Positions 1 through 36,621 of a stretch of DNA of 36,621 bases are shown here, in pieces. Position 1 is the stretch's first letter; each line of letters opens with the position of its first letter. The position numbers were made by a program, and so were the translations under genes. The stretch comes from Nitrososphaerota archaeon. GTDB taxonomy: Archaea; Thermoproteota; Nitrososphaeria_A; Caldarchaeales; Calditenuaceae. The stretch is from NCBI GenBank assembly GCA_038845265.1, contig JAWBQR010000011.1:1-36621 (forward strand), written 5' to 3'. The notes below the pieces were generated by a model. That model was not told the origin of the DNA. It did not search any database and saw only the letters and a list, made by a program, of their open reading frames with translations.

Positions 1-886
1 CCGTAGACATTACTGGCAATCCGCATGCAAGTGCCTCAACAACAACATTCGGGAACCCCTCCCACAGTGATGATAGACAGAAGAGGGTGCTCCGAGCCAT
101 ATACTTAAATGGATTACTCTTCCAGCCAAGGAAAAAAACTTTATCTTTTAATCCTAGTTCAGTGACAAGCCCCTCTAAATAGCCTCTTAACGGTCCGTCT
201 CCGATGAAGACGAGTTTGCAATCAGGCAGAACTTCGCTAACAGGTTTAAAGGAGCGTATGAGATGCCACTGGCCCTTCTGCACATCTAGTCTTGCACATG
301 ATACAATTACCGGAAAACTGAATAGTATTCGCTCCCCATTATCTAGCGGCTCTTCGACTAATTGACATATCTGATCAATATCAATTGGATTATAGACTAA
401 CAAAATATTTCTTGCAGGTATCTTATAATGAGTAATTAAATATTCTGATATGGCCTCAGAAATTGTAAATATTTTTCTCGGCAGTCTATATAGAATTCTA
501 GTCTTTATCCAATACGGAATCTTTCCACTTAAACCACGTATAGGCGGATTATAGGGATGAGTCTCTATCCTGAAAAATCTCTTAATACCTAAACAAAAAG
601 ACACGAGATTACGTCCCCTGCTTTTACAGCCAAGCATTGCGTCAACTCTTTCATATAACGATAATTTGTAAAGAGAAATAAGTGACCTGAGAAAATCTAA
701 TGGTGCCCCTCTCTTATAATTTTTTATTAAATATACCTTTGATCTCAATGGATATGATACACCTCGCTCCAAAACAGCAAAGATTACCTCAACGTCAGGA
801 GGAGCAAAGAGTGAAAGAAGAGATAACACCCTCTGTACCCCTCCACCGTATAATTTATCCGTAACAATAAGCAGTTTCTTTCTCAC
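1..886 (-). CDS. Glycosyltransferase family 4 (GT-B), 3' end truncated by window edge; not in ORF track
   Basis: Manual translation from GTG at 886 gives MRKKLLIVTDKLYGGGVQRVV...; the same frame at the window edge reads SLWEGFPNVVVEALACGLPVMST, the GT4 E-x7-E motif. Confidence 0.9.
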   Translation of the reverse strand, partial: MRKKLLIVTDKLYGGGVQRVLSLLSLFAPPDVEVIFAVLERGVSYPLRSKVYLIKNYKRGAPLDFLRSLISLYKLSLYERVDAMLGCKSRGRNLVSFCLGIKRFFRIETHPYNPPIRGLSGKIPYWIKTRILYRLPRKIFTISEAISEYLITHYKIPARNILLVYNPIDIDQICQLVEEPLDNGERILFSFPVIVSCARLDVQKGQWHLIRSFKPVSEVLPDCKLVFIGDGPLRGYLEGLVTELGLKDKVFFLGWKSNPFKYMARSTLFCLSSLWEGFPNVVVEALACGLPVMST

Positions 887-957
887 AAACTTTATTACAA
901 ACAAAGATAAAAATTAAGATTTCTATACTGTAAGGTTAGCTGGGCCTTTGTCAGAAA

Positions 958-1229
958 ATGTTCAAAGTAGCAGTGTTTAGGGGAAAAGACTATGGAGATA
1001 AAAAGGTGCTCGTTCAGGCTACATGTCCAAGCGGAAGACAAGCCATTAGAATATTTACTGAGAAGCTCTTCAAAATTATGAAAAAGCTTATCTAAGAGCC
1101 GTGAAGACAAGATGGGGTGATGAGAACCTTAGCTACAGTCTACAACTCCTAAGAGAAGGAGCCAAGAAGCTACGCTTAACTTTGGAAATCCTAGTTAAAA
1201 TTCCGGCTATTATCAGTATTTTGAGATGA
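958..1229 (+). pseudogene. Possible ~90-codon gene split by a -1 frameshift, function unknown
   Basis: ORF 958-1095 (MFKVAVFRGKDYGDKKVLVQATCPSG...) overlaps an open -1 frame 1062-1229 whose TGA forms an ATGA overlap with the flippase start. Confidence 0.3.
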
Positions 1230-2731
1230 GTAGGGCTAGGCTGAGACTCGCCGGCGCCATCTCTTTCACCTCGCAGGTTCTCGGATACATAATCGGAATA
1301 CTCTTCACAGCAATGGTCTCGAGACGACTATCAGAGAGAGAATTCGGAGCCTGGGCATACATAGGAACACTCCTAAGCTACGCAGTAACACCCACAGACC
1401 TCTTCGCGACCTGGATATACAGAGAGGCGGCCAGAGGCAGAAAAATACTCGGACATGCAGTCCTCCTAAACGCGCCAATACTCTTCACAGCAATCTTACT
1501 GTACATCGCATTCAGCGACAGAGCAGCAGCCTCAGCAGGACTACAACCCCAGTTAGTCCTACTAGGCCTAATAACACTACCACCACTCTACCTAACAACA
1601 GCAATAACAGACATAGCAAAAGGCTACGTCCCACAACACGTCGGCATCTCATCAATAATCTTCGAAACATCAAAACTAATACTCGGAATACTACTAGTAG
1701 CCCAGCTAAGACTAGGACTACAAGGAGCATTCACAACACTATCCATAGCCTACACTCTCCAACTCGTCTACCTACTCACAAGAATCAAACCACTAGCATC
1801 GAGACAAATAGACCTCACAACAATCAAGAGATGGATAAGAGGCTCAATATTCAAACTCGTTAGCCTCGCATCAGGCTACATATCACAACTCGACATAATC
1901 CTAATGACAACCATAACGACAACCACACTGATAACAGGATACTGGCAAGCAGCACTCCTCATCGCAATAATGGTCAAATCAACAGGAGACCTAATGGGAG
2001 GACTAACTCAGAGACTACTGGCAGGAGGAGACCAAAGAGACATCGACAAATCATTCACGTTCACAATGACCATCGCAGCACCAGCACTACTCGGAGCAAT
2101 AATCCTTGGAGGAGACATACTCTACGCATTCAGACCAACATACGCCTCAGCCTGGCCAGCAGCAGCAATACTAGCAGCAAGCACCTTCATCGGAATACTC
2201 ACAAACTTCTACTCATCAGCAATATTCGCGTCAGATAAATTCGACATAAAAGAAGACACACCATTAAAAGAATTCGCAAAAAGCCGAGTCTTCCAACTCT
2301 GGAGAATAGGCCTCTACACAGCAGCAGCATACACCGCACTAATAGCAGCCACCCTACTAATCCTCCAAACAAAAAATACAGAAATATTAACAATTATAAC
2401 CGCCATAGCCACAATACATCTAGCCATTAGTACAGCCCGACTCATAATATACAGAAAACTATCAGAGAAATACACACCTCATAGACCAAAACTAAAAACC
2501 GCATCACCATACATAGCAGCCTCACTAATAATGGCAGCAATACTCCTCCTTTCCAGGACATTAATAGACCCAAGAGCACCAAGATTAGCAGAGACGCTCC
2601 CACCCCTATTTTTACTGGTAACCCTAGGAGCAACAACATACTTCATCATCTTATATTTCATGAGCAAAGACTTCAAAATCCTCCTAAATGACATTAGAGC
2701 CTTCCTGAGAAGCCATATGATAAAAATATAA
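1226..2731 (+). CDS. Polysaccharide/oligosaccharide flippase (Wzx/MOP-superfamily membrane protein)
   Basis: 501 aa with many hydrophobic segments; N-terminal 'VSRRLSEREFGAW' matches the Polysacc_synt R-x-L-x3-E-F-G pattern; next to a GT4 gene. Confidence 0.8.
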   Translation: MSRARLRLAGAISFTSQVLGYIIGILFTAMVSRRLSEREFGAWAYIGTLLSYAVTPTDLFATWIYREAARGRKILGHAVLLNAPILFTAILLYIAFSDRAAASAGLQPQLVLLGLITLPPLYLTTAITDIAKGYVPQHVGISSIIFETSKLILGILLVAQLRLGLQGAFTTLSIAYTLQLVYLLTRIKPLASRQIDLTTIKRWIRGSIFKLVSLASGYISQLDIILMTTITTTTLITGYWQAALLIAIMVKSTGDLMGGLTQRLLAGGDQRDIDKSFTFTMTIAAPALLGAIILGGDILYAFRPTYASAWPAAAILAASTFIGILTNFYSSAIFASDKFDIKEDTPLKEFAKSRVFQLWRIGLYTAAAYTALIAATLLILQTKNTEILTIITAIATIHLAISTARLIIYRKLSEKYTPHRPKLKTASPYIAASLIMAAILLLSRTLIDPRAPRLAETLPPLFLLVTLGATTYFIILYFMSKDFKILLNDIRAFLRSHMIKI

Positions 2732-2758
2732 AATAAAAAATACATAAATTATTGAAAA

Positions 2759-3178
2759 TTACCGATACTCAACGATCTTTTCAGCAACAATCTTCATAAT
2801 TATACGTTTCTGTCCAGGCCTTCTAAATGGATGCTTTTCAACACCCATATACCTCTTTGCTAATTTGTCTATGTGTTCTTCAGCACCATCAACAGTCAGA
2901 TTCGATACTCTGCCTCTTATCTCCACATATTGAAGTGGATTTAGATGATCTACCACGACGAGTGAAACTCTCGGATCTCTCTTTACGTTAAGGTGCTTTA
3001 CCCTACCAATCACTGTATTAACAAGCACAATGTCCCCCTCTCTATCAACATACACCGGGCTGAGATGCGGCGACCCATCAGGCATAAGAGTTGCCAAGAT
3101 ACCTATATTCCTACCATCAATAAGCCATCTAGCAAACTCAGTAAGCCCCATCTCGAATAGTAATGAACATAAAGACAC
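2759..3178 (-). CDS. PPOX-class F420-dependent oxidoreductase (split beta-barrel); true start may be ATG 3151
   Basis: LATLMPDGSPHLSPV, K-x2-N-x-KRDPRVSL, YVEIRG, IDKLAKRY motifs. Confidence 0.9.
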   Translation of the reverse strand: MSLCSLLFEMGLTEFARWLIDGRNIGILATLMPDGSPHLSPVYVDREGDIVLVNTVIGRVKHLNVKRDPRVSLVVVDHLNPLQYVEIRGRVSNLTVDGAEEHIDKLAKRYMGVEKHPFRRPGQKRIIMKIVAEKIVEYR

Positions 3179-3212
3179 ATTTAAGCATTAGAAAATATCC
3201 ACACTCTTGGCA

Positions 3213-4382
3213 CTACAATTTTAGCTCTTCAATGCTCGCTAAGGTCTCCTCGACCGCCCCGTCTAGTCCCAGCCTATTCCACTCATCCATAAGTTCTGCA
3301 GGACTACACTTAGTAGAGGGGCTTCTTACAAGTATGGAGCAACAATCCTTATACTCCATAATCGAGAAACTATAAGTACCAATCTTCTTGGCTAGCTCGG
3401 TGATCTCTTCCTTATCCATGCCTATCAGTGGCCTATAAATGGGTAGCGAAATACCAACAGACGCTGAATATAGATTATCAAGTGTCTGAGACGCAACCTG
3501 ACCCAACGAATCGCCTGTCACAATGCCAAGCGCACCAATATTCATAGCTAATTTCTCAGCAACTTTAAGAATGAATCTCCTAAAGAGTGGCAGCTCGATT
3601 CTTGGGTCAGCGCTCATCGATGCCTTCATGAAGGGAATGAATGATGCTAGGAAAAGTCTTAAATCGGGGGAGTAGTTCTTTAAGACTTCGAAGAGGCTCA
3701 CAATCTTGCTTATTCTAACTTGTTCGATGCTTGGTAATGCATAGAAATGTAGCAGGTCTACGCGGCATCCTCGCTTCATCATGAGCCAGCTAGCTACTGG
3801 CGAGTCAATTCCACCCGAGAAGAGCGATAATACTCTTCCGCTTGTACCTACTGGAAGGCCACCGGGTCCTTCATGTCTATTCCAGATTATTATTGCCTCT
3901 GATGGGAGTATTGATATGTATAGTGTTTTTTGTGGGTTTTTTAGATTGACTCGTGCTCCTACTTGTTTGATTATTTCTGCTCCTATTTCACGCTCTATTT
4001 CTAGTGATGTTAGGCTGTATGATTTGTCGACTCTTGTTGCTTTGATTCTGAATGTTTCGTCTGGTTTGATGTGTTGTTTTGCGATTTCGACTGCTGTCTC
4101 TTTTAGTGAGTCTATGTCTTTTGGGATTGAGTATCCCTCGCCTATCCACTTTATTCCGAATACTTTCTTCAGCTTGTTTATTATGTTGATTGTTTGTTGG
4201 TTGTCCGTATCGTCGAGGTAGATTAGGAGTCTTCCTGGTCTTCTTTTGATCTTGATGTTTTGGTTGAGGATTTTTTCTGCGTTTTTTATGAGTTTGGTCT
4301 CGTATTGTTTTCTGTTTGTTCCTTTTAGTGCTATCTCTGAGTAGTGGATTGCGATTATTCTTTTTTCTTTTTGTTCTGTCAC
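3213..4382 (-). CDS. thiI: tRNA 4-thiouridine(8) synthase ThiI/TtuI (THUMP + PP-loop)
   Basis: YSEIALKG-x-NR, GPGGLPVGTSG, PP-loop SGGIDSPVA, TGDSLGQVASQT, RPLIGMDKEEI, DCC. Confidence 0.96.
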   Translation of the reverse strand: MTEQKEKRIIAIHYSEIALKGTNRKQYETKLIKNAEKILNQNIKIKRRPGRLLIYLDDTDNQQTINIINKLKKVFGIKWIGEGYSIPKDIDSLKETAVEIAKQHIKPDETFRIKATRVDKSYSLTSLEIEREIGAEIIKQVGARVNLKNPQKTLYISILPSEAIIIWNRHEGPGGLPVGTSGRVLSLFSGGIDSPVASWLMMKRGCRVDLLHFYALPSIEQVRISKIVSLFEVLKNYSPDLRLFLASFIPFMKASMSADPRIELPLFRRFILKVAEKLAMNIGALGIVTGDSLGQVASQTLDNLYSASVGISLPIYRPLIGMDKEEITELAKKIGTYSFSIMEYKDCCSILVRSPSTKCSPAELMDEWNRLGLDGAVEETLASIEELKL

Positions 4383-4428
4383 TTCTTTTCTATGTGTTGT
4401 TTGTCTTTTGTGAATATGAATCTTTAAG

Positions 4429-5703
4429 TTGGGGGTTGTGTATTATTTATTAGTTGTGGGGGTTTTGGGTTTGGAGGATGTGCCGGTTATTCTGGGGTCT
4501 GAGAGGGTTTTGGAGCGTGTGGTTTGTCCTGTCTGTCGTAATGTTGCTAGGTTTTGTAGGTTGTCTGTCTGTCCGTATTATAGGGGTGTCTATGAGGGTA
4601 TTCGTCGTTCTCTTTCGTCTGACGTGTTGTTTGGGCCTTCTCCTCCCGCGGTTCTTTTTGGCGAGTGGGGTTATCCGAGGGTTTTTGGTGGTTCTTGTGT
4701 CTCTTTTGTTGAGGGTGTTGAGCCTGGTCTTCTTGAGTCTCCGAGGAGTTGGCTGGATTTGTCGATTGATGATTTGTTGAGTCTTAGGCTTGGTCTTGTT
4801 CTCGGTAGGTTGAGGATGCCTGTTGTTGGTGCTCGGAGGCCTAGTAGGGTTTTGAGTGCTATTCAGGAGTCTGCGCTTTCATTTCTGCCGGTTGATGTTG
4901 AGTTGAGGGTTGTTGGTGGGTTTAGGGCGAGGCCTGGGTTTGGTGTTAGGGCTATGCCGCATGGGCCTTCTGTGAGGATTGATGATGTTAGGGTTGTTGG
5001 TAATGTTTCTGCTCCTAGGAGTGTTGAGAGTCTTGTTGGTGATGTGGATGTTTCTGCTGCTGTGGCTGTTGGTGAGCTTTATCGTCGTGGTGTTGATGAG
5101 TATTATTTGTCTAGGGTTTTTTCTGCTGGTCTTCTTGGTAGGAGGGCTGAGCGGCGGCTTGTTCCGACTGAGTGGAGTATTACTGCGATTGATGATTTGG
5201 TTGGTAGGATGCTTTTGAGGAGGGTTAAGGAGTTGAGGGTTATTGGTGAGTTTCGTGTTTATGAGGCTTCTGCTTTGTTTAATTCTGTCTTTGTTGTCTT
5301 GGTTCCTTTTCCATGGATGTTTGAGTTGCTTGAGGGTTGGGTTCGTTTTTTTGATGAGTCGCCTTATGTTGATTTTGAGTTTTATTGGGGTCGTAGTGAT
5401 TATGCTTCTGGGACTGGTGGGGCTTATTATGCGGTTAGGCTTTCTGTTTTGAGGTATCTTGTCTCTCGTGGTGAGCAGGCTGGTGCTGTTGTGTTTTTTG
5501 AGGTTGATCGTGGGTGGGTTCCTCTTGGTGTTTGGAGGTTTAGGGAGTTGACGAGGAGGGCTTTGGAGTCTGGTTTTCGTAGGTTTGGTTCTCTTGAGGA
5601 GGCGTTAGGGTATGTTGGGCCTAGGCTTAGGATTCCGTTGGGGAGGTATTTGTCGAGGAGTCGTTTGGTTCCTTTTATTAGGGGTCAGGCGAGGCTGGCT
5701 TGA
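4429..5703 (+). CDS. nre: Nre-family DNA repair protein (start probably slightly downstream, ~4471)
   Basis: N-terminal CxxC-x6-C-x4-CP, GPSPPAVLFG-x2-GYP, RRLVPTEWSITAIDD, GGAYYA-x-R, PLGVW, C-terminal PIP-like QARL. Confidence 0.88.
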   Translation: MGVVYYLLVVGVLGLEDVPVILGSERVLERVVCPVCRNVARFCRLSVCPYYRGVYEGIRRSLSSDVLFGPSPPAVLFGEWGYPRVFGGSCVSFVEGVEPGLLESPRSWLDLSIDDLLSLRLGLVLGRLRMPVVGARRPSRVLSAIQESALSFLPVDVELRVVGGFRARPGFGVRAMPHGPSVRIDDVRVVGNVSAPRSVESLVGDVDVSAAVAVGELYRRGVDEYYLSRVFSAGLLGRRAERRLVPTEWSITAIDDLVGRMLLRRVKELRVIGEFRVYEASALFNSVFVVLVPFPWMFELLEGWVRFFDESPYVDFEFYWGRSDYASGTGGAYYAVRLSVLRYLVSRGEQAGAVVFFEVDRGWVPLGVWRFRELTRRALESGFRRFGSLEEALGYVGPRLRIPLGRYLSRSRLVPFIRGQARLA

Positions 5704-5717
5704 TTTTTGGGTTAAGG

Positions 5718-5748
5718 TTTTTATTGGGTCTTTTATTCGGTATTGAGT
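5718..5748 (+). promoter_or_regulatory. Putative tRNA-Gly(GCC) promoter (TATA-like TTTTTATT plus TATTGAGT element)
   Basis: AT-rich box about 30 nt upstream of the tRNA; the 8-mer is shared with the other tRNA promoter. Confidence 0.5.
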
Positions 5749-5750
5749 GA

Positions 5751-5824
5751 GCGGCCGTAGTCTAGTCTGGTAGGACACCAGCCTGCCACGCTGGGGGTCC
5801 CGGGTTCAAATCCCGGCGGCCGCA
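5751..5824 (+). tRNA. tRNA-Gly(GCC), no intron, CCA not encoded
   Basis: Acceptor GCGGCCG/CGGCCGC-A, anticodon stem CCAGC/GCTGG with loop CT-GCC-AC, T arm CCGGG-TTCAAAT-CCCGG. Confidence 0.97.
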
Positions 5825-5841
5825 GTTGTTAAGTGCCTGTG

Positions 5842-5860
5842 ATTTTTTTCAATTTTTGCT
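5842..5860 (+). terminator. Oligo-T tracts downstream of tRNA-Gly(GCC)
   Basis: ATTTTTTTCAATTTTTGCT about 18 nt after the tRNA, consistent with archaeal intrinsic termination. Confidence 0.45.
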
Positions 5861-6018
5861 TAACAGTTTTTATTTCGTCTTTATGCTTCTCGGTAGGTTT
5901 TGTGTTTCTTTTCATTTTTCTTCGTTCTAGTATATATCACGATGTTGTAATTATAGTGTTTGTAGTAATTAAATAATTAATTATTTTTGAGTGGTTTGTT
6001 GGGTTTTAGGTGTATGTT

Positions 6019-6252
6019 TTATACTCGTCGGAGTTTTTGTAGTATTTCTATTGGAAGTTTTATTTCTATCTTGTTTGCGTCTTGGTCGTACGCTATTATT
6101 TCATCTTCTTTTTCTGCTGCGCATATTCTGTGTTTTCCGCTGCATATTGGGTATGTCTCGCTTAGGCCGCACATGCATATCCATACATTTTCACCGCTTT
6201 GGGTCGTGTATCTGTAGGGTCTTTTGGCTGTATGTATGACTATCCTGGCCAT
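6019..6252 (-). CDS. CDGSH-type iron-sulfur domain protein
   Basis: W-I-C-M-C-G-L-S-x2-Y-P-I-C-S-G-K-H fits the C-x-C-x2-S-x3-P-x-C-D-G-S-H consensus with variations. Confidence 0.88.
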   Translation of the reverse strand: MARIVIHTAKRPYRYTTQSGENVWICMCGLSETYPICSGKHRICAAEKEDEIIAYDQDANKIEIKLPIEILQKLRRV

Positions 6253-6348
6253 GATTATATTTTGTTCTGATTATTATAAAAATTTTTTGATAAATCTCTT
6301 CTCCGTATTGTTAAAAAATTGGTTTGGATTACTAATGTTTTTTGGATT

Positions 6349-7104
6349 TTATTTTACTGGTCTTCCGCATTTGCCGCAGAATTTGTCTTCTGGGTTTAGG
6401 GGGTTTCCGCAGTAGCCGCAGAACAGCCTTGCTGGTGTCGTTACTGGTGCTGCTGGCACAATCGTTGTTGATTCGTATATGTTTGAGGCTGACCTGCCGA
6501 CGAAGACCATTAAGACTGGTGAGAGTATGAGGGATATGAGCCATCCGATGTATGGTATGAATGAGAGTCCGCCCAGTATTAATCCTATTACGAATATTAC
6601 GACTATCCATAGAATATAGTTAAGCCAGCCTATGGCTTTGATTTTCGATAGTATTGCGTTGAAGTCGAACGCGTCTCCTAGTTTTCCCTTCTTGACCATG
6701 TGGACTATCGCCATGAGTGCTATAATCATTATGAAGAAGGCAAAAATCAGTCCTATGGCGACCAATATACTGCCTATGACTCCGAGCCCTGGCGTGGGCG
6801 TTAATATGCCGGCAACTATCGTCGAGGCCATTCCAGCAGCAAGCAGGGCTATCGGCACTATCATGTAGATGAGTGAGACGACGAAGATTTTCGCGCCGTC
6901 TACCCAGAGTTCTCCGTATTTCTCGAGGGGTGGCGGGGCATTGCTTTTTGGTGATTCTCTTATAACTTTTGCAAAGTAACCAGAGACGATGAAGTTGACT
7001 ATCGGAATTATGTTCAGAACTATGAGGATTGCGAGTCTCCCGATGTCTTTGAATAGCTTGGACGTATAGTCGAATGACTCTCTTAGATTTTCTTCTAGTC
7101 TCAT
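6349..7104 (-). CDS. DUF4013-like membrane protein with C-terminal zinc ribbon (start placed at ATG 7104)
   Basis: IIPIVNFIVSGY...P-P-L-E-K-Y-G-E-L-W-V-D-G pattern, several TM helices, C-terminal CGYCG...FCGKCG; GGAGGGG SD-like motif before ATG 7104. Confidence 0.8.
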   Translation of the reverse strand: MRLEENLRESFDYTSKLFKDIGRLAILIVLNIIPIVNFIVSGYFAKVIRESPKSNAPPPLEKYGELWVDGAKIFVVSLIYMIVPIALLAAGMASTIVAGILTPTPGLGVIGSILVAIGLIFAFFIMIIALMAIVHMVKKGKLGDAFDFNAILSKIKAIGWLNYILWIVVIFVIGLILGGLSFIPYIGWLISLILSPVLMVFVGRSASNIYESTTIVPAAPVTTPARLFCGYCGNPLNPEDKFCGKCGRPVK

Positions 7105-7109
7105 CTTTA

Positions 7110-7460
7110 TTACCCCTCCAGCCTTGAGCCGCATCTTGTGCAGTATAGTAGTTCAGGCTCGTTTGTCTTTCCACATTTTGGACAAATTTTCGTTGATGAC
7201 GTAGCGGTTTGGGTTGGCTCTGATGGCTTTTCTGGAGTTGTTGACTTGACAAGAATTACGTCTCCGAATGCAAGTATTTGGGATGAGGGTATTGCTTCCT
7301 CTCCACCGTCTCCAGACTTATCATATATCAAGACAATTTTTCCCTCCGGGTCGTATCCAATATCTTTAACCTTGCCGAGCCGCATAGCGGCATCAGATAT
7401 GATGTCCTTGCCTATAATTTCATCCCTTCTGAAATATTTTTTACTCAGAACAATCACCAA
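7110..7460 (-). CDS. PRC-barrel domain protein with C-terminal zinc ribbon
   Basis: IIGKDII-x5-LGKVKDIGYD...IP-x3-I-x-AFGDVILV (PRC barrel), P/T/S-rich linker, CPKCG...YCTRCG. Confidence 0.85.
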   Translation of the reverse strand: MVIVLSKKYFRRDEIIGKDIISDAAMRLGKVKDIGYDPEGKIVLIYDKSGDGGEEAIPSSQILAFGDVILVKSTTPEKPSEPTQTATSSTKICPKCGKTNEPELLYCTRCGSRLEG

Positions 7461-7491
7461 CCTATTACGTATTATAGGATATTTGTGCTGC

Positions 7492-8610
7492 TTATAAATT
7501 TTTAAACTTAAAGAAATTTTCTTTCCGATCGATTTTTAGTTTTTTATTTAGTCCGCCAATGTATACGTGGTCGAGGACCGTTCCGACTGCATCTTTTATC
7601 TTCATGTGTTCCACTAGACTTCTTGATTTTCCGCCTGCCAGCCCATCTGCGATGAGTGCCGCTCCCTGTGCGGCTGCCTTTGCCTTTGCTTGAAGCCCGA
7701 TTAATTTTTCGACTCTGGCTATATCGTAGATTCTCTTGCTTATTTCTTCGTAAATCTCGGGGATGTTGCTGAGTCTTCCGGATATGATGATTGCTTCTGG
7801 CTTCTTGACAGCTGCTTGAAGTGCTCTCACCGTCTTTTCGAGTCCCTCCATGAATGCTTCCCATGCAAGTCTTGCCCTAGGTTCTGTCTTGGCTCTTTTC
7901 GGGAAGTCTTCGGGTGTGAGACTGTCGTCTCCTACGATTGTCCTTACGCCGCCTGTGAAGAGTGTCGCCTTGCTGATGCCTCCAAGCAGGTATGCGACCT
8001 CGCCGTCTAGTGCGCCAGAGGTCAGAAAGCCTGGGCCAGCTCTTGTCCCTCCGATTCCGTCGACTATTCTTCCATTCTCTATTGCTATACCCGCGTTGTA
8101 TCCGAAGCCTATCTCAAGGAGAATTAATGAGACTTTATCAAACGGTACTCCATGCCTCTCGGAGTAGTCATATACAGCTAGAACTGCGCAGCAGAGCTTA
8201 TCTGCAGTCCCCATGTCTATTGCATTTACTTTCCTGTGCGTCGGCACTGTTGGTAGATGGACTACACCCGGGATAAAAATAACGTTGAGCCCATTTTCTT
8301 TTAGGAGTTTCACCGCCTTCGTGAGTCCAGTAAGTACGGGGATCTCGGCATCATCGGGCCTGACTAACACCATCTGGAAGATATCCTCCTCACTTATTTG
8401 GGATATGTGCTTTATGGGTAGTCCATAGCCAGAGGGGCCGACGACTAGGTCAAGTGGTCTTGCATCTGTTAGTAGTTTGACGAGAGATTCAGGGTTCTCC
8501 GCTATCTCTCTCGATGGTATTGACTCGTCGAGAAAGACCTTGCCGTCCTCCAGGCCGAGAATATCAAAGCTCCGAGTTCCCGGGTCAATACCTACGACTC
8601 GAATAGCCAT
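7492..8610 (-). CDS. DUF1464 family protein (ASKHA-fold, butyrate-kinase-like)
   Basis: VVGIDPGTRSFD, GPSGYG, PGVVHLPTVP-x-HRKVNAIDMGTADK, IVDGIGGT, AAQGAALIADGLAGG. Confidence 0.9.
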   Translation of the reverse strand: MAIRVVGIDPGTRSFDILGLEDGKVFLDESIPSREIAENPESLVKLLTDARPLDLVVGPSGYGLPIKHISQISEEDIFQMVLVRPDDAEIPVLTGLTKAVKLLKENGLNVIFIPGVVHLPTVPTHRKVNAIDMGTADKLCCAVLAVYDYSERHGVPFDKVSLILLEIGFGYNAGIAIENGRIVDGIGGTRAGPGFLTSGALDGEVAYLLGGISKATLFTGGVRTIVGDDSLTPEDFPKRAKTEPRARLAWEAFMEGLEKTVRALQAAVKKPEAIIISGRLSNIPEIYEEISKRIYDIARVEKLIGLQAKAKAAAQGAALIADGLAGGKSRSLVEHMKIKDAVGTVLDHVYIGGLNKKLKIDRKENFFKFKNL

Positions 8611-8773
8611 ACATCTAATACCGATACGGCCCGCTATTTAGTCTAAAACATAAATGCTCTTTCTTCTGAAACCTTCGAGAAAGCCTCTTCGATATTTTTT
8701 CAGTTAAACATGGGAATTCGTTAAGAATCTTTATTAAAAATTGACTTTTTCCATTTTTTAAAAAACTTATTAG

Positions 8774-9586
8774 ATGCTCTCGCCTCTATTTGACATGGCT
8801 CAAAGGTTTGTTTTGCCTTTTATTGCCTCTATTCCTGAGAAGGGGCTTAGGAGCATCTTTATCGAGCTTGAAAATACTCCTGGCACACTCGTCTCAGCAC
8901 TCGAGGTCGTCTCTGCTGCTGGTTTAAACATAGTAGGGATTCTCTCTAACATAGCGATGAACATTGAGCAGCCCGTCTACGTAATACTCTTCATCGATGC
9001 GAATGGATACTCCGACGAGGAGCTCGAATCACTCTTAAGAATCATCGAGAAGAAAAAAGGAGTAAGAAGACTAATAATGCATAAACAAATACCAACACAT
9101 ACATCAATCGCGCCGTTCTACAACGAATTAGGAATATACGACTTCAGAGCAGTAATAATTACTGACAGCGAGCTCAAAGGACTATTTGACGGTCTATATG
9201 AAAAGCTCGGAGAGCCCGCAACAAAGGCATTCCTCTATCACTTGGGACTACCCATGGGGAGGTCTGAGGCCCAGTACATAAAGAAGATCTTCCCCGGAAT
9301 GGGGACGACCCAAAAACTCGAAATTATTCCACTCACATCACTCGGATGGAGTCATAGAATAGACGTAGAGCAACTAGACAAAGACACCTACAAACTCAAG
9401 ATACATGGACTCATCGAATGCCAACTGCTCAAAAACACAACACACAAACCAGTATCAAACCTAATAAGAGGATACCTAACAGGCTTCATCTCAGAGATAA
9501 TGGGAGGCGAGTGGGAAGTCAACGAGCAGACATGCATAGCCAGCGGAGCAGAGGCCTGCATATTCATCGCACAGAAGAAGCAGTGA
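8774..9586 (+). CDS. ACT domain + V4R (4-vinyl reductase-like) ligand-binding protein
   Basis: IELENTPGTL...GLNI (ACT); LYHLG-x2-MG, EC...IRGYLTG...EQTCIASGAEACIF (V4R). Confidence 0.82.
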   Translation: MLSPLFDMAQRFVLPFIASIPEKGLRSIFIELENTPGTLVSALEVVSAAGLNIVGILSNIAMNIEQPVYVILFIDANGYSDEELESLLRIIEKKKGVRRLIMHKQIPTHTSIAPFYNELGIYDFRAVIITDSELKGLFDGLYEKLGEPATKAFLYHLGLPMGRSEAQYIKKIFPGMGTTQKLEIIPLTSLGWSHRIDVEQLDKDTYKLKIHGLIECQLLKNTTHKPVSNLIRGYLTGFISEIMGGEWEVNEQTCIASGAEACIFIAQKKQ

Positions 9587-9587
9587 A

Positions 9588-9662
9588 TGCGGCCGCCGGG
9601 ATTTGAACCCGGGTATTGGGCTCGGAAAGCCCACGTCCTAGTCCAGACTAGACCACGGCCGC
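9588..9662 (-). tRNA. tRNA-Gly(TCC), no intron, CCA not encoded
   Basis: Reverse complement GCGGCCGTGGTCTAGTCTGGACTAGGACG-TGGGC-TT-TCC-GA-GCCCA-ATAC-CCGGGTTCAAATCCCGG-CGGCCGC-A. Confidence 0.95.
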
Positions 9663-9673
9663 CTAGACATGCT

Positions 9674-9703
9674 ACTCAATATTGACGAAGAGCATTATTT
9701 AAA
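9674..9703 (-). promoter_or_regulatory. Putative tRNA-Gly(TCC) promoter (TTTAAATA TATA box plus TATTGAGT)
   Basis: TATA box at 9703-9696 on the minus strand; shared 8-mer at 9681-9674. Confidence 0.55.
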
Positions 9704-9757
9704 AATTGGCTAAAAAAGTATATCCATCCCCAAGCAGCAGAATCAAGCCAGCAAAAA

Positions 9758-11026
9758 ATGAGAAGAAGAATGAGGGGATTCGAGGAACTAACACCACTAA
9801 GCACAGCCATCGAGAAGCTTAGACAAAACCTAAGGCATAGAATAACGGAGAGAGAAACAATCAGGACAGAATCATCACTCGGAAGAATACTCGCAGAAGA
9901 CATAAGAGCAAAGAAGAGCATCCCAGAGTTCGACAGAAGCGCAGTCGACGGCTACGCAGTATTCGCAGAAGACACATACGGAGCAACGCCTACAAACCCC
10001 ACATCGCTGAGAGTAATAGGAACGATAGAGACAGGAGCAGACCCAAGCCAGCTGCCAGAGATAAAGAGGGGCACAGCCGCAAAAATCATGACGGGAGCGC
10101 CAATCCCAAAGGGAGCAACAGCCGTCGTGATGGCAGAACACACAGAGGAGAAGAACGGCACCTTAGAGATAACTAGGCAGGTAGCGCCATACCAAAACAT
10201 CTCGAGAAGAGGAGAAGACTACCAAGAGGGAGAACTAATCGCGAAGAGAGGAACAAGAATAAAGCCATGGCACATCGCTGCAATCATACAGCAAGAAATA
10301 ACAACGATACAGGTCCTGAGAAGGCCACACATCGCGGTAATCACGACCGGAGAGGAGCTCACGGAGCCAGGAACAGCCAAGACGCCGGGACAGATAATAG
10401 ACACAAACAGACCAATGCTCAAGGCGCTCATAATGGAGGAGGGCGCAGAGCCACTAGACCTAGGAAACACACCGGACGAAATAGAAGAGATAAAGAAGAG
10501 AATAGAGACAGGCCTAAGCCTCGCCGACATAGTAATCATCACAGGAGGAACAAGCCTGGGAGAGAGGGACCTAGTCCCAGAGGCCGTAAACAGCATAGGA
10601 AAGCCAGGAGTAATCATCCACGGACTAAGAATAAGACCCGGAAAGCCAACCGGTGTCGGAGTAATCAATGGAAAACCAGTATTCATGCTCTCCGGATTTC
10701 CAGTCTCCTCCTACATCGGCTTCAAGCTCCTCGTCAAGCCATGCATCTCTATGCTAACGGGCACGAGAGACCTACCACCACCCAGAATCAGGGGGAGAAT
10801 TACTAGGCGAGTAGCGAAGCCAGCAGGAATAAGGGCATTCGTCAGGGTCAGGGTAATGGACAGAGGCGGAGGACTCATAGTTGAGCCACTCATGCTGACC
10901 GGCTCAGGACTACTATCAACACTCACGAAGGGAAACGGTGTCCTAGAGATTCCAGAGATGCTTGAGGGACACGATGAGGGAGAGGAGGTGGAGGTCGAGT
11001 TGACACAGCCAATAGAGGAGGCCTGA
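9758..11026 (+). CDS. moeA: Molybdopterin/tungstopterin metal insertase MoeA
   Basis: PEFDRSAVDGYAV, IMTGAPIPKGATAVVMAE, TTGEEL, ITGGTSLGERD, RPGKPT, LSGFPVS. Confidence 0.96.
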   Translation: MRRRMRGFEELTPLSTAIEKLRQNLRHRITERETIRTESSLGRILAEDIRAKKSIPEFDRSAVDGYAVFAEDTYGATPTNPTSLRVIGTIETGADPSQLPEIKRGTAAKIMTGAPIPKGATAVVMAEHTEEKNGTLEITRQVAPYQNISRRGEDYQEGELIAKRGTRIKPWHIAAIIQQEITTIQVLRRPHIAVITTGEELTEPGTAKTPGQIIDTNRPMLKALIMEEGAEPLDLGNTPDEIEEIKKRIETGLSLADIVIITGGTSLGERDLVPEAVNSIGKPGVIIHGLRIRPGKPTGVGVINGKPVFMLSGFPVSSYIGFKLLVKPCISMLTGTRDLPPPRIRGRITRRVAKPAGIRAFVRVRVMDRGGGLIVEPLMLTGSGLLSTLTKGNGVLEIPEMLEGHDEGEEVEVELTQPIEEA

Positions 11027-11028
11027 GT

Positions 11029-12975
11029 ATGGCTTTTGTCTTCCATAGACTTGTAAAGGTCGAGGAGGCTTTGAAGATACTCGAGGAAGCAACGGGAGGA
11101 GTAGGTCCACTCGGTGTCGAGAGAGTAGCAGTCAATGAGGCTCTTGGCCGTGTACTCGCCGAGAACGTCAGCGCGGAGGTTGATTCTCCTCCTTTTGATA
11201 GGTCAATCGTCGATGGATACGCTGTGAACTCCGCCGATGTTTATGGAGCCTCTGAGGCCTCGCCTGTGAGGCTCAGAGTTATTGGTGAGGTTAAGATCGG
11301 GACTCCTCCGGAGATTGTTGTTGATAGTGGTTCGGCGGCCCGCATCTCTACCGGAGCTGTAATTCCTCGAGGAGCAGACGCCGTTGTCATGGTTGAGTAT
11401 ACAAAAGAGCTGGAAAAGTATGTGTTGATTTATAGGGCCGTCGCTCCGGGCGAGAATGTATCGACTGCCGGGTCAGACGCCGCCAGAGGCGACGTTATCC
11501 TCAGGAGGGGCAAGATAATTACTCCGAGAGAGATAGCGGCGCTAGTTGGGATAGGAATAAACTCTGTTCGTGTATATCGGCGGCCGAGGGTCGCGGTCTA
11601 CTCGGTAGGCGATGAGCTCGTCAAAAATAGTCATGAGCTGCGCCCAGGAAAAGTAATCGATGTAAATGGACCTGCATTGACATCTCTTGCAGCTGAGTGT
11701 GGCGCAGATGCTAGGTACTATGGGATTCTTCCAGACGACTACAAGACGATTCTCCATGCGCTTAGTCAGGTGCTCGCAAACCATGATGTCGTGATCACCT
11801 CTGGAAGCACCTCCGCCGGCTACGGAGACGTAATCTACAAAGTCTTCAGCGATCTTGGCAGAGTACTGATTCATGGACTGAACGTGAGGCCTGGGAAACC
11901 AACTGTTATCGGTCTCTCGAATAATGGTAAGCTCTTAATTGGGCTCCCGGGCTTCCCACTCTCCGCGATGATTATCTTCAACGTAATCGTGCGTCCAATA
12001 CTTGTTAAAATGAGTGGTGTACTGGAATTGGAGGAGTGGAGAACTCTAAGGGCAAGATTTCCCTTTAGGATGGAGGCGGGTGGGGGAAAGACAGAGTATA
12101 TTCCTGTGCAAATTGTCGAGACTTCTACTGGACTCTCTGCGTATCCATTACTGATCGGTTCTGGCTCCACTACGGCGCTCGCAATCTCTGACGGATTTAT
12201 TACTGTCAGTGAGGAGAGACAATTCATAGAGGAGGACGAGGAGGTCCAAGTTACTCTCTTCTCACAGAGTTATAGAGCGGCGAAGCTAAACATAATTGGC
12301 AGCCACTGCCCAGCAGTCGACCTACTGCTAGACATCTCCGGAGTAAGCAATGCCAGAATAATAAATGTAGGTAGTCTCGGAGGATGGAGAGCAATTAGGA
12401 GGGGCGAGGCAGACATAGCAGGCACACATCTACTCGACCCAGATACAGGTGACTACAATGTCCACATGATTCATGAGCTTGGGCTCGAAGGATTAGTCAC
12501 GCTCTACAGAGGATACGGCAGAAGAGTAGGACTAATTATCAGTAAAGGCAACCCCCTACGAATAGAAGGACTCAAAGACATCGTTGAGAAAGATCTCAGG
12601 ATAGTAAATAGGGTGAGGGGCTCGGGGGCGAGGCAGCTCCTAGACATTGGCCTGAAAAAACTCGGGGTCGAGCATCCTGAGAAGACAGTCAAGGGATACA
12701 CCTACCAAGTAGGGACGCATAACGCAGTAGCCATCGCCGTCAAGGAGGGAAGAGCAGACTGTGGACTGGGAATAGAACATGCGGCATGGCTCTACGACCT
12801 AGACTTCATACCAATCGCCACCGAGATATATGACTTCGCAGTAAGAATCGACCGACTCGCAAAAGAACAAGTACAAAAATTCCTCACAACACTTTCATCT
12901 GACAAGTTTAAAGAAGAACTGAAAAAATTTAGGGGATACACTACCCTGAGCGATACAGGAAGAAAAATAATTTAA
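11029..12975 (+). CDS. moeA: MoeA fused to a C-terminal periplasmic-binding-protein-like (PBP) domain
   Basis: PPFDRSIVDGYAV, SGSTSAG, RPGKPT, GLPGFPLS; C-terminal IIGSHC, VGSLGG, ADIAGTHLLD, NRVRGSG. Confidence 0.95.
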   Translation: MAFVFHRLVKVEEALKILEEATGGVGPLGVERVAVNEALGRVLAENVSAEVDSPPFDRSIVDGYAVNSADVYGASEASPVRLRVIGEVKIGTPPEIVVDSGSAARISTGAVIPRGADAVVMVEYTKELEKYVLIYRAVAPGENVSTAGSDAARGDVILRRGKIITPREIAALVGIGINSVRVYRRPRVAVYSVGDELVKNSHELRPGKVIDVNGPALTSLAAECGADARYYGILPDDYKTILHALSQVLANHDVVITSGSTSAGYGDVIYKVFSDLGRVLIHGLNVRPGKPTVIGLSNNGKLLIGLPGFPLSAMIIFNVIVRPILVKMSGVLELEEWRTLRARFPFRMEAGGGKTEYIPVQIVETSTGLSAYPLLIGSGSTTALAISDGFITVSEERQFIEEDEEVQVTLFSQSYRAAKLNIIGSHCPAVDLLLDISGVSNARIINVGSLGGWRAIRRGEADIAGTHLLDPDTGDYNVHMIHELGLEGLVTLYRGYGRRVGLIISKGNPLRIEGLKDIVEKDLRIVNRVRGSGARQLLDIGLKKLGVEHPEKTVKGYTYQVGTHNAVAIAVKEGRADCGLGIEHAAWLYDLDFIPIATEIYDFAVRIDRLAKEQVQKFLTTLSSDKFKEELKKFRGYTTLSDTGRKII

Positions 12976-12986
12976 AGAATTGTTTA

Positions 12987-14855
12987 TTATGCCTCAAGCT
13001 TTTTTCTAAGCACTCTGTCAACGTCCTCTAGGCCGAGTCTCTTTAAGGTCTCTGACGTCGGGATGCCCCTCTCGTCCCATCCTACTACTTTGTAATATTC
13101 CTGCTTAAGCTTCTCAATTTCTTCACGTGTAGGTGCTTGTCCCTTCTTTGGCCCTGATGGCAGCGGTTCATAGAACCTTGCAGGGTTCTCGTCGACCTTC
13201 CACTTAACGTCCGGCCCACCAATCAGGAGCAATGCCCTCTGAATCTCGATTATCCTCATCGCTATATCATAATACCACTCGTCGACAGTGTATCCAAACC
13301 CAGTCACAGCGTTGAAGAAATCGATTATCTCATCTTTTTTCAAGTATAGCTCATTGAATAGGCAGTATACGCCTGAGTCAGACATCATCATACTGTGGTC
13401 ACTCACACTCTTAGTTATCGGTAGGAGCGCAATTGATGTGTGGTCTCCTCCCTGGACTGAACATGCATATGACATCCCCATCGGATAGTCTAGGCCGCTC
13501 CTAATACCATGCGCACCTATCCCAATTCCCTTACACTGAACTGCGTATTTAAGAAGGTCCTGATTCTTCATCTTTCCTAGCCTTAGCGCGGCCCTGAACG
13601 TTCCCTCAGCCAAGATATCTCCTATGCCCTGCCTCTTCGCAATCATCTCGGCGAGCTTTGCGAATGCTTCCGCGTTGCCCCACTTGAGGTCCAGTCCTCC
13701 TAGCTCTTCCCTCGTAAGGATGCCTCTCTGGTAGAGTTCAGCGGCGAAGCCTAGCGTGTTTCCAACCTGTATTCCACAGAACCCCAGGTCCTCAATGACG
13801 CTCACCATGTATACATTATCCTCTGGAGTGAATATTCCGAGGTTCGTGCCCTCATATGCCTGTAACTCATAGTCAGGGTTGTCAGCGATAGCGTTCTTAA
13901 ACCTGCCTGTCCTGACGACGGCTAGTTTTAGACAAGTAGTAGGACATCCGAAGTCTCCCCAATACCTCTTAATCCATACCCTCCGTTCGAACTCGTCTAC
14001 CCCGAAGCTCCTCTCGTCATGCCACTCCTCCTGCCAATTCCTCACAGGCTCAGAGCTGTACTGAGCACCGACGTTATATCCAGCGTACCCAGTACCCCAC
14101 CTCCTCATCAAATCGTGCTCAAAATTAATTCTCCAGACATGCCTAATCATCTGCAGAGTCTTTTCATGGTCAGCCACCTCTGGCAGCGGCCCCGTGCCCT
14201 TCGCGAGGACTGCCTTTAGCTTCTTTGAGCCCATCACTGCGCCGTATCCTCCGTATCCTGCCCCGTGGGCCCACTTTCCAACCACGCCCGCGGTCCTGGC
14301 CTTGTTTTCTCCCGCTGGGCCGATCATGTAGATGGCCGGCTCCTTCCACTCGCCGTATAGTGGATTCTTCGTGTTAAGCTCATTCCTGACCTCCTTGACG
14401 AGCGTTAAATATGTCTTCTTAGCGTCCAGTCCCCATACATGACTCGCGTCTCTAATGTCTATCTCTGAGTCCTTGACTAGGATGTAGGACGGCTTCTCAG
14501 CCTCTCCCGTGATTATCAATCCATCCCATCCAGCACACTTCAGCTCGACTGGAAACTCGCCCGCAATCGTGCTTCCGACGACGCCGTTGCTCTGCGGAGA
14601 CTTGCCAGTTATGCAGATCCTGCCGCCCGGGAAGAATCCAGTCAGCGGCCCAGTAAGGAAGAGTAGTATGTTTTCAGGGCCAAGTGGGTCAACCTCATCC
14701 CACTTCTCACCAAGCCTATCCCAGAGTATCTTCACGCCCAGGCCCCTGCCGCCGACGTATTTCCTCAGAACTTCCTCAGAGAATCTAACCTCCTTTACGC
14801 TCCCGGTCGAGAGGTCAATCTCTGCATATTTCCCCGCGTATCCCCGCCCACTCAT
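12987..14855 (-). CDS. Aldehyde:ferredoxin oxidoreductase family (tungstopterin) catalytic subunit
   Basis: YVGGRGLG, KSPQS, ELKCAGWDG, IGPAGE, GAVMGSKKLKA, LAEG, GGDH, YY-x3-GWDERGIPT-x-ETLKRLGL. Confidence 0.95.
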   Translation of the reverse strand: MSGRGYAGKYAEIDLSTGSVKEVRFSEEVLRKYVGGRGLGVKILWDRLGEKWDEVDPLGPENILLFLTGPLTGFFPGGRICITGKSPQSNGVVGSTIAGEFPVELKCAGWDGLIITGEAEKPSYILVKDSEIDIRDASHVWGLDAKKTYLTLVKEVRNELNTKNPLYGEWKEPAIYMIGPAGENKARTAGVVGKWAHGAGYGGYGAVMGSKKLKAVLAKGTGPLPEVADHEKTLQMIRHVWRINFEHDLMRRWGTGYAGYNVGAQYSSEPVRNWQEEWHDERSFGVDEFERRVWIKRYWGDFGCPTTCLKLAVVRTGRFKNAIADNPDYELQAYEGTNLGIFTPEDNVYMVSVIEDLGFCGIQVGNTLGFAAELYQRGILTREELGGLDLKWGNAEAFAKLAEMIAKRQGIGDILAEGTFRAALRLGKMKNQDLLKYAVQCKGIGIGAHGIRSGLDYPMGMSYACSVQGGDHTSIALLPITKSVSDHSMMMSDSGVYCLFNELYLKKDEIIDFFNAVTGFGYTVDEWYYDIAMRIIEIQRALLLIGGPDVKWKVDENPARFYEPLPSGPKKGQAPTREEIEKLKQEYYKVVGWDERGIPTSETLKRLGLEDVDRVLRKKLEA

Positions 14856-35960: not shown

Positions 35961-35978
35961 TAAACTAAATCAAAATAA

Positions 35979-36290
35979 CTACTTCGTGAAATCTGTCCAC
36001 TCACGCATGAGTTTATCATACCAATCATCGCTCTCCTCAATGGTCTCAAAGTTTCCAGTCTTTATCGCGAGATTAACCGCCTCAATATGATAGCAATAAG
36101 GCTTTGAGCCATGAATAACCCTAAAGAAATAATCATCACAACTACAGTAAGGAACATTAATCAGAACAATATAGTCTCTATGCCTACCAACAACAATCCA
36201 TCTAACCCTACCACTCGGCCTAAACACATATTTCTTTACATGCTTCCCCATCACAATCTCTTCTACTCCACGCGTCTCTCTAATCCTCAA
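35979..36290 (-). CDS. SWIM zinc-finger protein
   Basis: W-x-VVG-x3-DY, YCSCDDYFF...CYHI (CxC-xn-CxH). Confidence 0.9.
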   Translation of the reverse strand: MRIRETRGVEEIVMGKHVKKYVFRPSGRVRWIVVGRHRDYIVLINVPYCSCDDYFFRVIHGSKPYCYHIEAVNLAIKTGNFETIEESDDWYDKLMREWTDFTK

Positions 36291-36296
36291 TACAAA

Positions 36297-36621
36297 TCAT
36301 CCCCTACCCGAAGAATTTTCTTGAGTACTCTTAAGAATCACGCCTTCCAAAGAAAGGACAAGTGCATTCTTAACATCAAATACACCCGACCTCAACAATG
36401 GGCTCCCCATCTTACTATGGATTAATTGTTCGACCTCTACGCCTCCTGCAGCCGGGTTAAAATGAGGCATCACTAGAAGCTTCATGTTACCTCTCCTCCC
36501 ATAGCTTTTAACCAACTCGCCATACCCCGGCCTAGTTTCTAGGGCATCGTACAGACGCGACCTCCGGCTCTTCATAAATAAATAGACACGCTGCCTAGTG
36601 GGCAGCTCATCCTCAACCAGC
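36297..36621 (-). CDS. C-terminal part of an ICC-like metallophosphoesterase, 5' end outside window
   Basis: Frame is open to the window edge (LVEDELPTRQRVYLFMKS...); LLVMPHFNP-x2-GG and SPLL...A-x-V-x2-LEG-x2-L resemble archaeal COG1407-type C-termini. Confidence 0.6.
   Translation of the reverse strand, partial: LVEDELPTRQRVYLFMKSRRSRLYDALETRPGYGELVKSYGRRGNMKLLVMPHFNPAAGGVEVEQLIHSKMGSPLLRSGVFDVKNALVLSLEGVILKSTQENSSGRG

Follow-up and report, generated by a model that had tools for sequence, protein, structure and literature searches.

Kilobase-scale strand-skew islands at fixed sites in the chromosome of a Calditenuaceae archaeon follow neither gene direction nor tRNA genes

What makes the two strands of an archaeal chromosome exchange their base composition several times within a few kilobases? 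The question is raised by contig JAWBQR010000011.1 (contig 11) of the Nitrososphaerota archaeon assembly GCA_038845265.1 (Calditenuaceae, order Caldarchaeales), which was analysed over its whole length of 36,621 nt (the window). In its first 11 kb the plus strand is A+C-rich, then G+T-rich, then A+C-rich again, and an original prediction made from the sequence attributed these domains, which it saw as largely tracking the tRNA genes, to a localised mutational process anchored at fixed sites. Strand compositional asymmetry is a main sequence clue to DNA replication, transcription and repair, and to our knowledge its accepted causes all act at replichore or gene scale, following fork direction or the sense strand. 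The domains, which we call islands, follow neither. We examined them in the genome of the window (G000; 1,374,253 bp in 34 contigs, 93% complete, 1.9% contamination), in two other genomes of the same genus (G001, G002) and in a complete genome from another family of the order (G024), the second island-rich genome examined. Genes were checked by Pfam, and tRNAs by ARAGORN with introns allowed. The G+T-rich strand of an island is termed strand X, and its A+C-rich partner strand Y.

The predicted extremes were reproduced exactly, with 41/60 A+C at 1861-1920 and 46/60 G+T at 4981-5040; among 22,887 genomic windows of 60 nt, 0.24% hold at least 46 G+T and 1.1% hold 19 or fewer. Compared with windows of the same size across the whole genome, G+T was 0.346 at 1300-2750 (z -4.4), 0.726 at 3900-6400 (z +7.6, with no equally extreme window genome-wide) and 0.396 at 9000-10900 (z -3.2, AT skew +0.42), while the 500-nt profile peaked at a GC skew of +0.52 and an AT skew of -0.64. 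The skew did not vanish at fourfold-degenerate sites and was strongest there: those of nre comprised A.01, C.04, G.22 and T.73 (95% G+T), and those of the open reading frame (ORF) at 1226-2731 comprised A.62, C.29, G.06 and T.03 (91% A+C, or.09 G+T). At such neutral sites the plus strand is A+C-rich at 1.05-2.85 kb, balanced at 2.85-3.6 kb, G+T-rich at 3.6-8.6 kb (core to 6.35 kb) and A+C-rich at 8.8-11.03 kb. Together with a phase-max statistic, which compares G+T across the three codon phases of each 600-nt window, keeps the most extreme fraction and needs no reading frame, these sites gave the following domains.

1051-2850: island A, minus strand G+T-rich and plus strand A+C-rich (phase-max scan, fourfold sites)
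2851-3629: unskewed spacer between islands A and B, with a PNPOx-like gene and the 3' part of thiI (fourfold G+T.48)
3630-6348: core of island B, plus strand G+T-rich (all-site G+T.68-.76)
6349-8610: tail of island B, plus strand G+T-rich but weaker, with three minus-strand genes; common to G001 and G002
8774-11026: island C, minus strand G+T-rich, plus strand A-rich and T-poor (phase-max island 9001-10950)
35701-36600: weak island at the contig end, plus strand A+C-rich (phase-max, three windows, maximum deviation.22; GC skew -0.4)

The genes and tRNAs of the tract are these.

2-904, minus strand: glycosyltransferase (Pfam)
1226-2731, plus strand: conserved 501-aa membrane-protein-like ORF, sense strand A+C-rich, inside island A
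2759-3178, minus strand: PNPOx-like gene (PF01243), in the unskewed spacer
3213-4382, minus strand: thiI (Pfam PF02568, ThiI), 5' half in island B and 3' part in the spacer
4429-5703, plus strand: nre (Pfam Nre_N/Nre_C), in the core of island B
5751-5824, plus strand: tRNA-Gly(GCC) (ARAGORN), inside island B
6019-6252, minus strand: CDGSH gene of 77 aa, iron-sulfur-type zinc finger (PF09360 zf-CDGSH, 30.6 bits, cut-off 29.5)
Tail of island B, minus strand: DUF4013, PRC-barrel and DUF1464 genes (Pfam)
8774-9586, plus strand: ACT-V4R (Pfam), in island C
9588-9662, minus strand: tRNA-Gly(UCC) (ARAGORN), inside island C
9758-11026, plus strand: moeA (Pfam), in island C
11029-12975, plus strand: moeA-PBP (Pfam), a MoeA paralogue with a PBP-like domain, balanced

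The ORF at 1226-2731 had no Pfam or NCBIfam match; its identity to G002 by codon position (.79/.90/.59) indicates that this frame is coding. The CDGSH gene occupies what appears to be a spacer behind tRNA-Gly, and its sense strand is A+C-rich like those of the other minus-strand genes of island B. The two MoeA paralogues lie head to tail, and the edge of island C coincides with the 2-nt gap between them.

These limits refine the predicted ones. The G+T domain had been placed at about 3.9-6.4 kb, which describes the core, but its end came too early: fourfold skew persists more weakly to about 8.6 kb, through the DUF4013, PRC and DUF1464 genes, whose sense-strand fourfold G+T of.27/.35/.30 corresponds to.73/.65/.70 on the plus strand. 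The A-rich, T-poor third domain was present and is better described at neutral sites as an A+C domain of about 8.8-11.03 kb, ending at the moeA/moeA-PBP junction (11.03 kb) and not at 11.1-11.3 kb. A switch inside thiI was borne out, at 3630 by third positions and at about 3890 by all sites, with plus-strand fourfold G+T rising from.48 in the 3' half of the gene to.86 in the 5' half (sense.14). The other switch, predicted within ACT-V4R near 8.9 kb, was placed at 8.6-8.95 kb, the change point of island C falling at 8948/8938. Sense fourfold G+T was.25 in ACT-V4R and.19 in moeA (T.05), compared with.41 in the adjacent moeA-PBP. As predicted, the rest of the window was balanced, save for the weak A+C island at 35.7-36.6 kb. 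The sparse non-coding DNA of island B was likewise G+T-rich, which argues against selection on codons.

Across the genome the phase-max values of 9,042 windows formed a core at.35-.65 with tails reaching.03 and.98, and merging the extreme windows gave 33 islands of 0.75-3.45 kb, totalling 54.3 kb or 4.0% of the genome; three of these are islands A, B and C. A Pfam check of 138 candidate ORFs from the islands and their surroundings, together with the Pfam-confirmed genes of the window, gave 43 verified genes or gene parts with at least 300 nt inside an island. The sense strand was G+T-rich in 20 of these and A+C-rich in 23 (19.3 versus 18.8 kb), with equal mean deviation, and 42 of the 43 took the sign of the DNA strand and not of the gene. 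The claim that the domains ignore gene orientation therefore holds generally. About 40% of the genes were only partly inside an island, such as RpoA (2174 of 3795 nt), IleRS (932 of 3180), OTCase (384 of 912) and ThiI (782 of 1170). The skew is thus an effect on the DNA strand that crosses gene boundaries and ends mid-gene, and genes on opposite strands within islands show mirror-image codon and amino-acid usage.

The second island-rich genome, G024, contained 81 islands with a total of 102 kb, 13 of them strong, and their signs were mixed, as in the series +,-,+,- at 715-726 kb. About half of the 13 strong islands went with each gene orientation. That 715-726 kb series of four islands of alternating sign corresponds to a cluster of an Eco57I-like methylase and Cas_APE2256, and at 963-973 kb of contig 1 lie two convergent CRISPR-cas modules (Csa3-Cas6-Cas1-Cas4 and Csa1-RAMP-Cas10), each of them an island whose sense strand is the G+T-rich one. 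Defence and surface genes were seemingly over-represented in the strong islands of this genome.

Several long ORFs without a family match were observed in the wrong frame or strand within the window, at 3781-4221 (plus), 10219-10686 (minus) and 10267-10806 (plus), and a spurious ORF of 1342 aa on contig 7 of G000 (71299-75327, plus) lies over aminotransferase and aldehyde dehydrogenase genes. Such ORFs arise in T-poor or A-poor tracts because stop codons require both T and A, and gene callers may be led astray there.

An effect of this size on one strand might come from transcription, if non-template damage and template repair acted in long read-through or antisense transcripts or in self-reinforcing R-loops. 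In transcription-associated asymmetry, including the R-loop-prone GC-skewed promoters of mammals, the non-template strand is G/T-enriched and the template protected, and the islands resemble this in their gene-to-transcript scale and in the pairing of a G/T-enriched strand with a protected partner, as transcription-coupled repair plus non-template damage would produce. The islands are transcript-sized, and the top plateaus of G000 (.97-.99) extend over entire genes (nre, proteasome beta, L2, Bmp and an HTH protein), each with G+T enriched on its sense strand. Transcription-associated skew follows the sense strand, however, whereas the islands cut through genes, and in 23 of the 43 verified genes the template is the G+T-rich strand, the strong islands of G024 being about as evenly divided. 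In addition, rpl4-rpl23-rpl2 forms a single island while rpl3 of the same cluster is unskewed, and several islands start 300-900 nt upstream of a G+T-sense gene, within its divergent neighbour. Transcription of the annotated genes does not drive the skew, and we consider a transcriptional origin in general quite unlikely.

The original prediction had the domains largely track the tRNA genes, each tRNA-Gly lying where its own sense strand is the T-rich one, and it offered R-loops or persistent single-strandedness at highly transcribed RNA genes, local replication initiation or fork stalling, and strand-specific repair as causes. Both tRNA-Gly genes of the window do lie inside islands with their sense strand G+T-rich. 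The association was not borne out at genome scale in either G000 or G024. In G000, 4 of 43 tRNAs lay within 500 nt of an island compared with 2.67 expected by chance (2,000 random placements, P=0.275), and 29 of the 33 islands were without a tRNA; in G024, 7 of 44 tRNAs were near islands compared with 4.81 expected (P=0.20), and none of the 13 strong islands held a tRNA. The orientation rule fitted 3 of 4 island tRNAs in G000 and 1 of 7 in G024, and the oriented keto skew over the 1.5 kb upstream of G000 tRNAs averaged -0.004 (positive in 14 of 41). The two tRNA-Gly genes of the window are therefore bystanders and not anchors of the islands, and R-loops at highly transcribed RNA genes are left without support.

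A weak but consistent keto skew on the tRNA sense strand, far below that of the islands, reverses from one side of tRNA genes to the other. Its value in G024 was -0.063 over the 1.5 kb upstream (positive in 9 of 44) and +0.060 downstream (33 of 43), and in G000 +0.027 downstream (31 of 41); the upstream sign is opposite to that of the predicted rule.

Replication fared little better. Islands A and B point away from each other across a 0.8-kb spacer in an origin-like skew pattern, and the islands share with the replication skew of bacteria and some archaea the keto/amino axis and independence of gene orientation. Replication skew spans a whole replichore and switches once at an origin and once at a terminus, whereas the islands leave 96% of the genome unskewed and their signs flip within a few kb, which excludes replichore-scale effects and agrees with the predicted scale. 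Local initiation or fork stalling is also a poor fit, since neighbouring islands alternate in sign without consistent geometry and divergent neighbour pairs (6) are fewer than convergent ones (13). We regard skew anchored at tRNAs or at a local origin or fork stall as very improbable. Of the predicted process, what stands is that it is localised, strand-asymmetric and fixed in place, while the anchoring at tRNAs does not; strand-specific repair remains viable among the proposed causes. The islands are independent of tRNA genes, annotated gene direction and replichore.

That the process is fixed in place is indicated by the relatives. Both G001 and G002 align colinearly with the window and carry the same three domains (synteny with G002 is lost after 9.67 kb). 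The left change point of island A is at 1356 in all three species, and the third-position edge in thiI is at 3630 in all three, with the all-site edge at 3887/3874/3918. Three more islands (contigs 5, 2 and 10) are common to the three species, and 319 kb of G001 aligned to G000 contained one island, orthologous to a G000 island, and none private to G001. Fourfold sites are near saturation across the three species (identity above compositional expectation.02-.39, with islands no higher than flanks), so that an inherited skew would have decayed; its presence at shared edges means that the force still acts in each lineage. An nre match was found in 41 of 41 relatives searched, and its fourfold G+T was.95/.89/.62 in the three genomes of the genus compared with.33-.53 in 17 others of the order. 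The Nre protein of G000 contains 1 Lys and 60 Val, compared with 6-30 Lys and 26-44 Val in the 17 others. At greater depth the placement of islands is lineage-specific: for 6 of 8 G024 islands compared, homologues were found in G000, and none of the 6 lay within a G000 island.

Two side observations concern exchange and insertion at these loci. The stretch from 1208 to about 6000 of the window looks recently exchanged between species, with about 89% identity between G000 and G001 compared with about 71% genome-wide; fourfold identity was.75-.85 from the ORF at 1226-2731 through nre, including the unskewed PNPOx gene and the 3' half of thiI, and.30-.45 in moeA-PBP, AOR and beyond. At the island on contig 10 of G000 (31201-39130), the ATPase gene lies about 9.4 kb farther from ThrC in G002, where the break adjoins a tRNA-Arg, which suggests insertion at a tRNA. 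The two tRNAs of this query also account for numerous short tRNA-like matches at other places.

Beyond these genomes, no islands were found in 400 kb of G003 or in 100 kb of G020. As a wider proxy we used a 30-codon periodic G/T pattern calibrated on five genomes, consecutive G/T runs having been discarded for lack of discrimination; the pattern also matches low-complexity repeats, so that its phylum counts are upper bounds. Among 151 sampled genomes of the phylum, 141 had at least one match, 38 had at least 200 and 10 had none, with 836 in G000. Counts far above this were seen in G098 (6128), G169 (3509) and G159 (1670), genomes that may hold many more islands or be skewed along their entire chromosomes.

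Skewed tracts of this kind could in principle be imported DNA from a strand-biased replicon such as a virus, a plasmid or a hairpin-ended element, slowly ameliorating towards its host. Many strong islands of G024 would suit such a source (the Eco57I-like restriction-modification system, the two cas modules, HEPN, a glycosyltransferase cluster and a surface protein of 2596 aa), as would the apparent recent exchange between species at 1.2-6 kb of the window. Against it, the islands of G000 hold core orthologues (L2/L4/L23, the 3' part of RpoA, the 5' part of IleRS, proteasome beta, nre) and end mid-gene, three species keep identical edges to the skew although their synonymous sites are saturated, and polarised rates, given below, still run towards the skew, the opposite of amelioration. 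Import is largely refuted, and we give it hardly any credence. Nor do the domains match chimeras or recent transfers, since orthologous genes, skew and edges are common to three species. Among the listed public sequencing runs, 14 of 21, from 8 studies, carry at least half the words of 1200-11100, and together with the domains in three genomes this shows that the locus is not an assembly artefact.

The direction of change was read at fourfold sites by three-species parsimony oriented to strand X, pooling two lineages over the tail of island B and three other islands. The counts on strand X, each change set against its complement, were as follows.

C>T 43/92 versus G>A 15/219
A>G 9/29 versus T>C 46/494
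G>T 63/219 versus C>A 5/92
A>T 4/29 versus T>A 13/494
C>G 14/92 versus G>C 3/219
A>C 6/29 versus T>G 57/494 (not significant)

The five significant pairs had P-values from 1e-2 to 4e-15, and substitutions in the flanking genes were symmetric. Relative to the flanks, changes from A or C and G>T on strand X ran at 0.7-2.1 times the rate, while their complements ran at 0.12-0.64 times, with one at 1.15. The bias strips the amino bases A and C from strand X and loads them onto strand Y. Because the polarised rates push towards the skew, the process is ongoing in place and the amelioration of imported DNA is excluded.

We then fitted likelihood models that allow multiple hits on a three-species star tree with the branch lengths of the flanks (923 island and 391 flank sites); a free-root fit gave unstable branch lengths, and the star tree was used instead. 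The log-likelihoods (lnL) were as follows.

Flank rates: -3542.8
One multiplier on X-type changes: -3343.2
One multiplier on Y-type changes: -3317.4
One push-pull parameter: -3279.8
Six X-type multipliers: -3233.3
Six Y-type multipliers: -3239.5
All twelve rates free: -3210.8

In the fit with twelve rates, amino>keto changes were multiplied by 1.1-2.45 and keto>amino changes by 0.06-0.93. In island B of G000, fourfold A (.01-.03) was lower than C (.04-.05). Deamination alone does not account for the pattern, since transversions are as lopsided as transitions, A lies below C and the gain of A and C on strand X is slowed.

The likelihoods bear on a bias in fixation, by which selection on the strand or transcript, or keto-biased conversion in polar heteroduplex, possibly filtered by EndoMS/NucS, would favour G and T on one strand. 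A single push-pull parameter was the best one-parameter model (lnL -3279.8 versus -3343.2 and -3317.4), which speaks for such a bias, as do the keto>amino changes at 0.12-0.64 times the flank rate and the apparent recent exchange between two species at 1.2-6 kb of the window. Pointing the other way, G>T (63/219) is far more frequent than C>A (5/92) although both are neutral under keto selection, which speaks for asymmetry of damage or repair and against pure keto selection, and the other islands show no excess identity between species. We know of no function for a strand made only of G and T. GC-biased gene conversion is alike in being a local fixation bias at recombination scale that mimics selection, and the push-pull rates fit it; it favours G:C whichever strand bears the G, whereas the islands depend on the strand of the keto base and would need a strand-polar heteroduplex. 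No process that biases conversion by which strand bears the keto base is known to us.

NucS was the sole repair activity among those examined to discriminate along this axis. In the available portions of two reports, EndoMS/NucS is described as discriminating between keto and amino bases (PMC4838380, PMC6159521). It was found in the island-rich G000, G001, G002 and G024 and not found in the island-poor samples G003 and G020, and in a sample of 41 genomes from the order, carriers of a full-length NucS match were richer in proxy matches (median 70.5 versus 10, P=.0007 by genome, uncorrected for kinship). At genus level the link fell to P=.11, in the phylum sample NucS occurred in 30 of 38 high-count genomes compared with 70 of 113 others, and the highest proxy count of all comes from a family in which 3 of 22 genomes have NucS. 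Given the weak association across the phylum and this family, NucS is not required for islands and is kept only as a lead. We hold fixation bias unlikely, though a serious contender.

We tentatively read the islands as discrete tracts of an ongoing, locally fixed, strand-specific substitution bias that arises from unequal handling of the two strands, an explanation we favour while holding it short of even confidence. The two strands would be treated unequally, repeatedly, at the island sites: strand X would be exposed or retained as template, and its lesions and mispairs would become substitutions, while strand Y would be renewed or protected and its lesions erased. Such unequal exposure and renewal would yield both push and pull. 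One possible route is the recurrent replacement of Y templated by X; others are polar repair or recombination tracts, and persistent R- or D-loops from a local cis element that would leave X exposed. Three further candidates were rejected: reverse transcriptase (RVT_1 in 1 of 5 genomes, G001, and not found in G000, G002 or G024), loss of uracil or hypoxanthine repair (EndoV and UDG present in 5 of 5 genomes) and a Y-family polymerase (only in G003 and G024, without pattern).

Several observations weigh against unequal strand handling. Blocks of 24 nt near the edges, conserved in three species, were found at three islands without a shared motif, and no cis element emerged from them. A process with a fixed start and a variable end should leave an asymmetry between edges, yet of 25 islands only 15 had the wider edge at the 3' side (P=.85). 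Neighbouring pairs, 13 of them convergent, 6 divergent and 18 alike in sign, showed no significant geometry. Simple hydrolytic deamination predicts neither the stronger depletion of A than of C nor transversions as lopsided as transitions, and selection or biased gene conversion would produce the push-pull pattern just as well. The rate estimates draw on sites close to saturation, on few ancestral A and C and on a pool of heterogeneous islands, and assume equal time depth for islands and flanks. RNA contigs on 1-13000, from two RNA-Seq metatranscriptomes and two runs that are probably DNA, were patchy and unstranded, and their tRNA peaks came from other organisms. We accordingly weight the mutational reading about twice the fixation reading and no more.

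The closest likeness is to vertebrate mitochondrial DNA, where one strand is near-saturated with G+T at fourfold sites and the presumed exposed strand shows an excess of C>T and A>G. The islands resemble it in the near-saturated G+T strand, in the C>T and A>G excess on strand X that mitochondrial-type deamination predicts, and in strand-dependent codon and amino-acid usage. Three other predictions of deamination were not seen: asymmetry confined to transitions, C lower than A, and grading along the tract. The mitochondrial skew covers a whole small replicon and is graded by single-stranded time, whereas the islands are about 33 separate tracts of 1-3 kb with alternating signs, no consistent gradient, asymmetric transversions and A below C. 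Kataegis, in which kilobase-scale clusters of strand-coordinated changes form on single-stranded DNA at breaks with C>T and C>G on one strand, is alike in scale, in strand coordination and in these two changes; it is a single somatic event with enzyme-specific context, whereas the islands are heritable, recurrent and fixed over species-level time.

In the literature outside subscription journals, including the available portions of PMC12999951, PMC3082918 and PMC2780954, no description of kilobase-scale orientation-independent islands was found, and the available text of a 2026 survey of archaeal skew makes no mention of them (PMC12999951). No accepted cause explains either the scale or the anchoring of the strand-asymmetric substitution bias seen in the islands, which is strong enough to strip nearly all lysine from Nre, a conserved repair-associated protein. 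In practical terms, island tracts are liable to be miscalled as foreign DNA, to distort phylogenies and dN/dS estimates and to produce long spurious ORFs. Cultivated relatives and existing hot-spring metagenomes allow the cause to be tested directly.

If the bias lies in fixation, the islands would offer the first example of a conversion or selection that depends on which of the two strands bears the keto base. If it is mutational, they mark places in archaeal chromosomes where a strand-specific DNA transaction recurs that has so far gone unmapped. It is possible, though we hold it rather doubtful, that Thermoproteota widely carry fixed sites of a strand-polar DNA transaction recurring every few generations; one-strand replacement synthesis, polar heteroduplex and a long-lived displacement loop are candidates for this transaction that we put forward with similar reserve. 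With at least 200 proxy matches in 38 of the 151 sampled genomes, islands may on this reading be a general trait of archaeal chromosomes that has not yet been described. Were this so, such sites would constitute heritable mutational micro-domains, in which the codon and amino-acid usage of any resident gene is rewritten.

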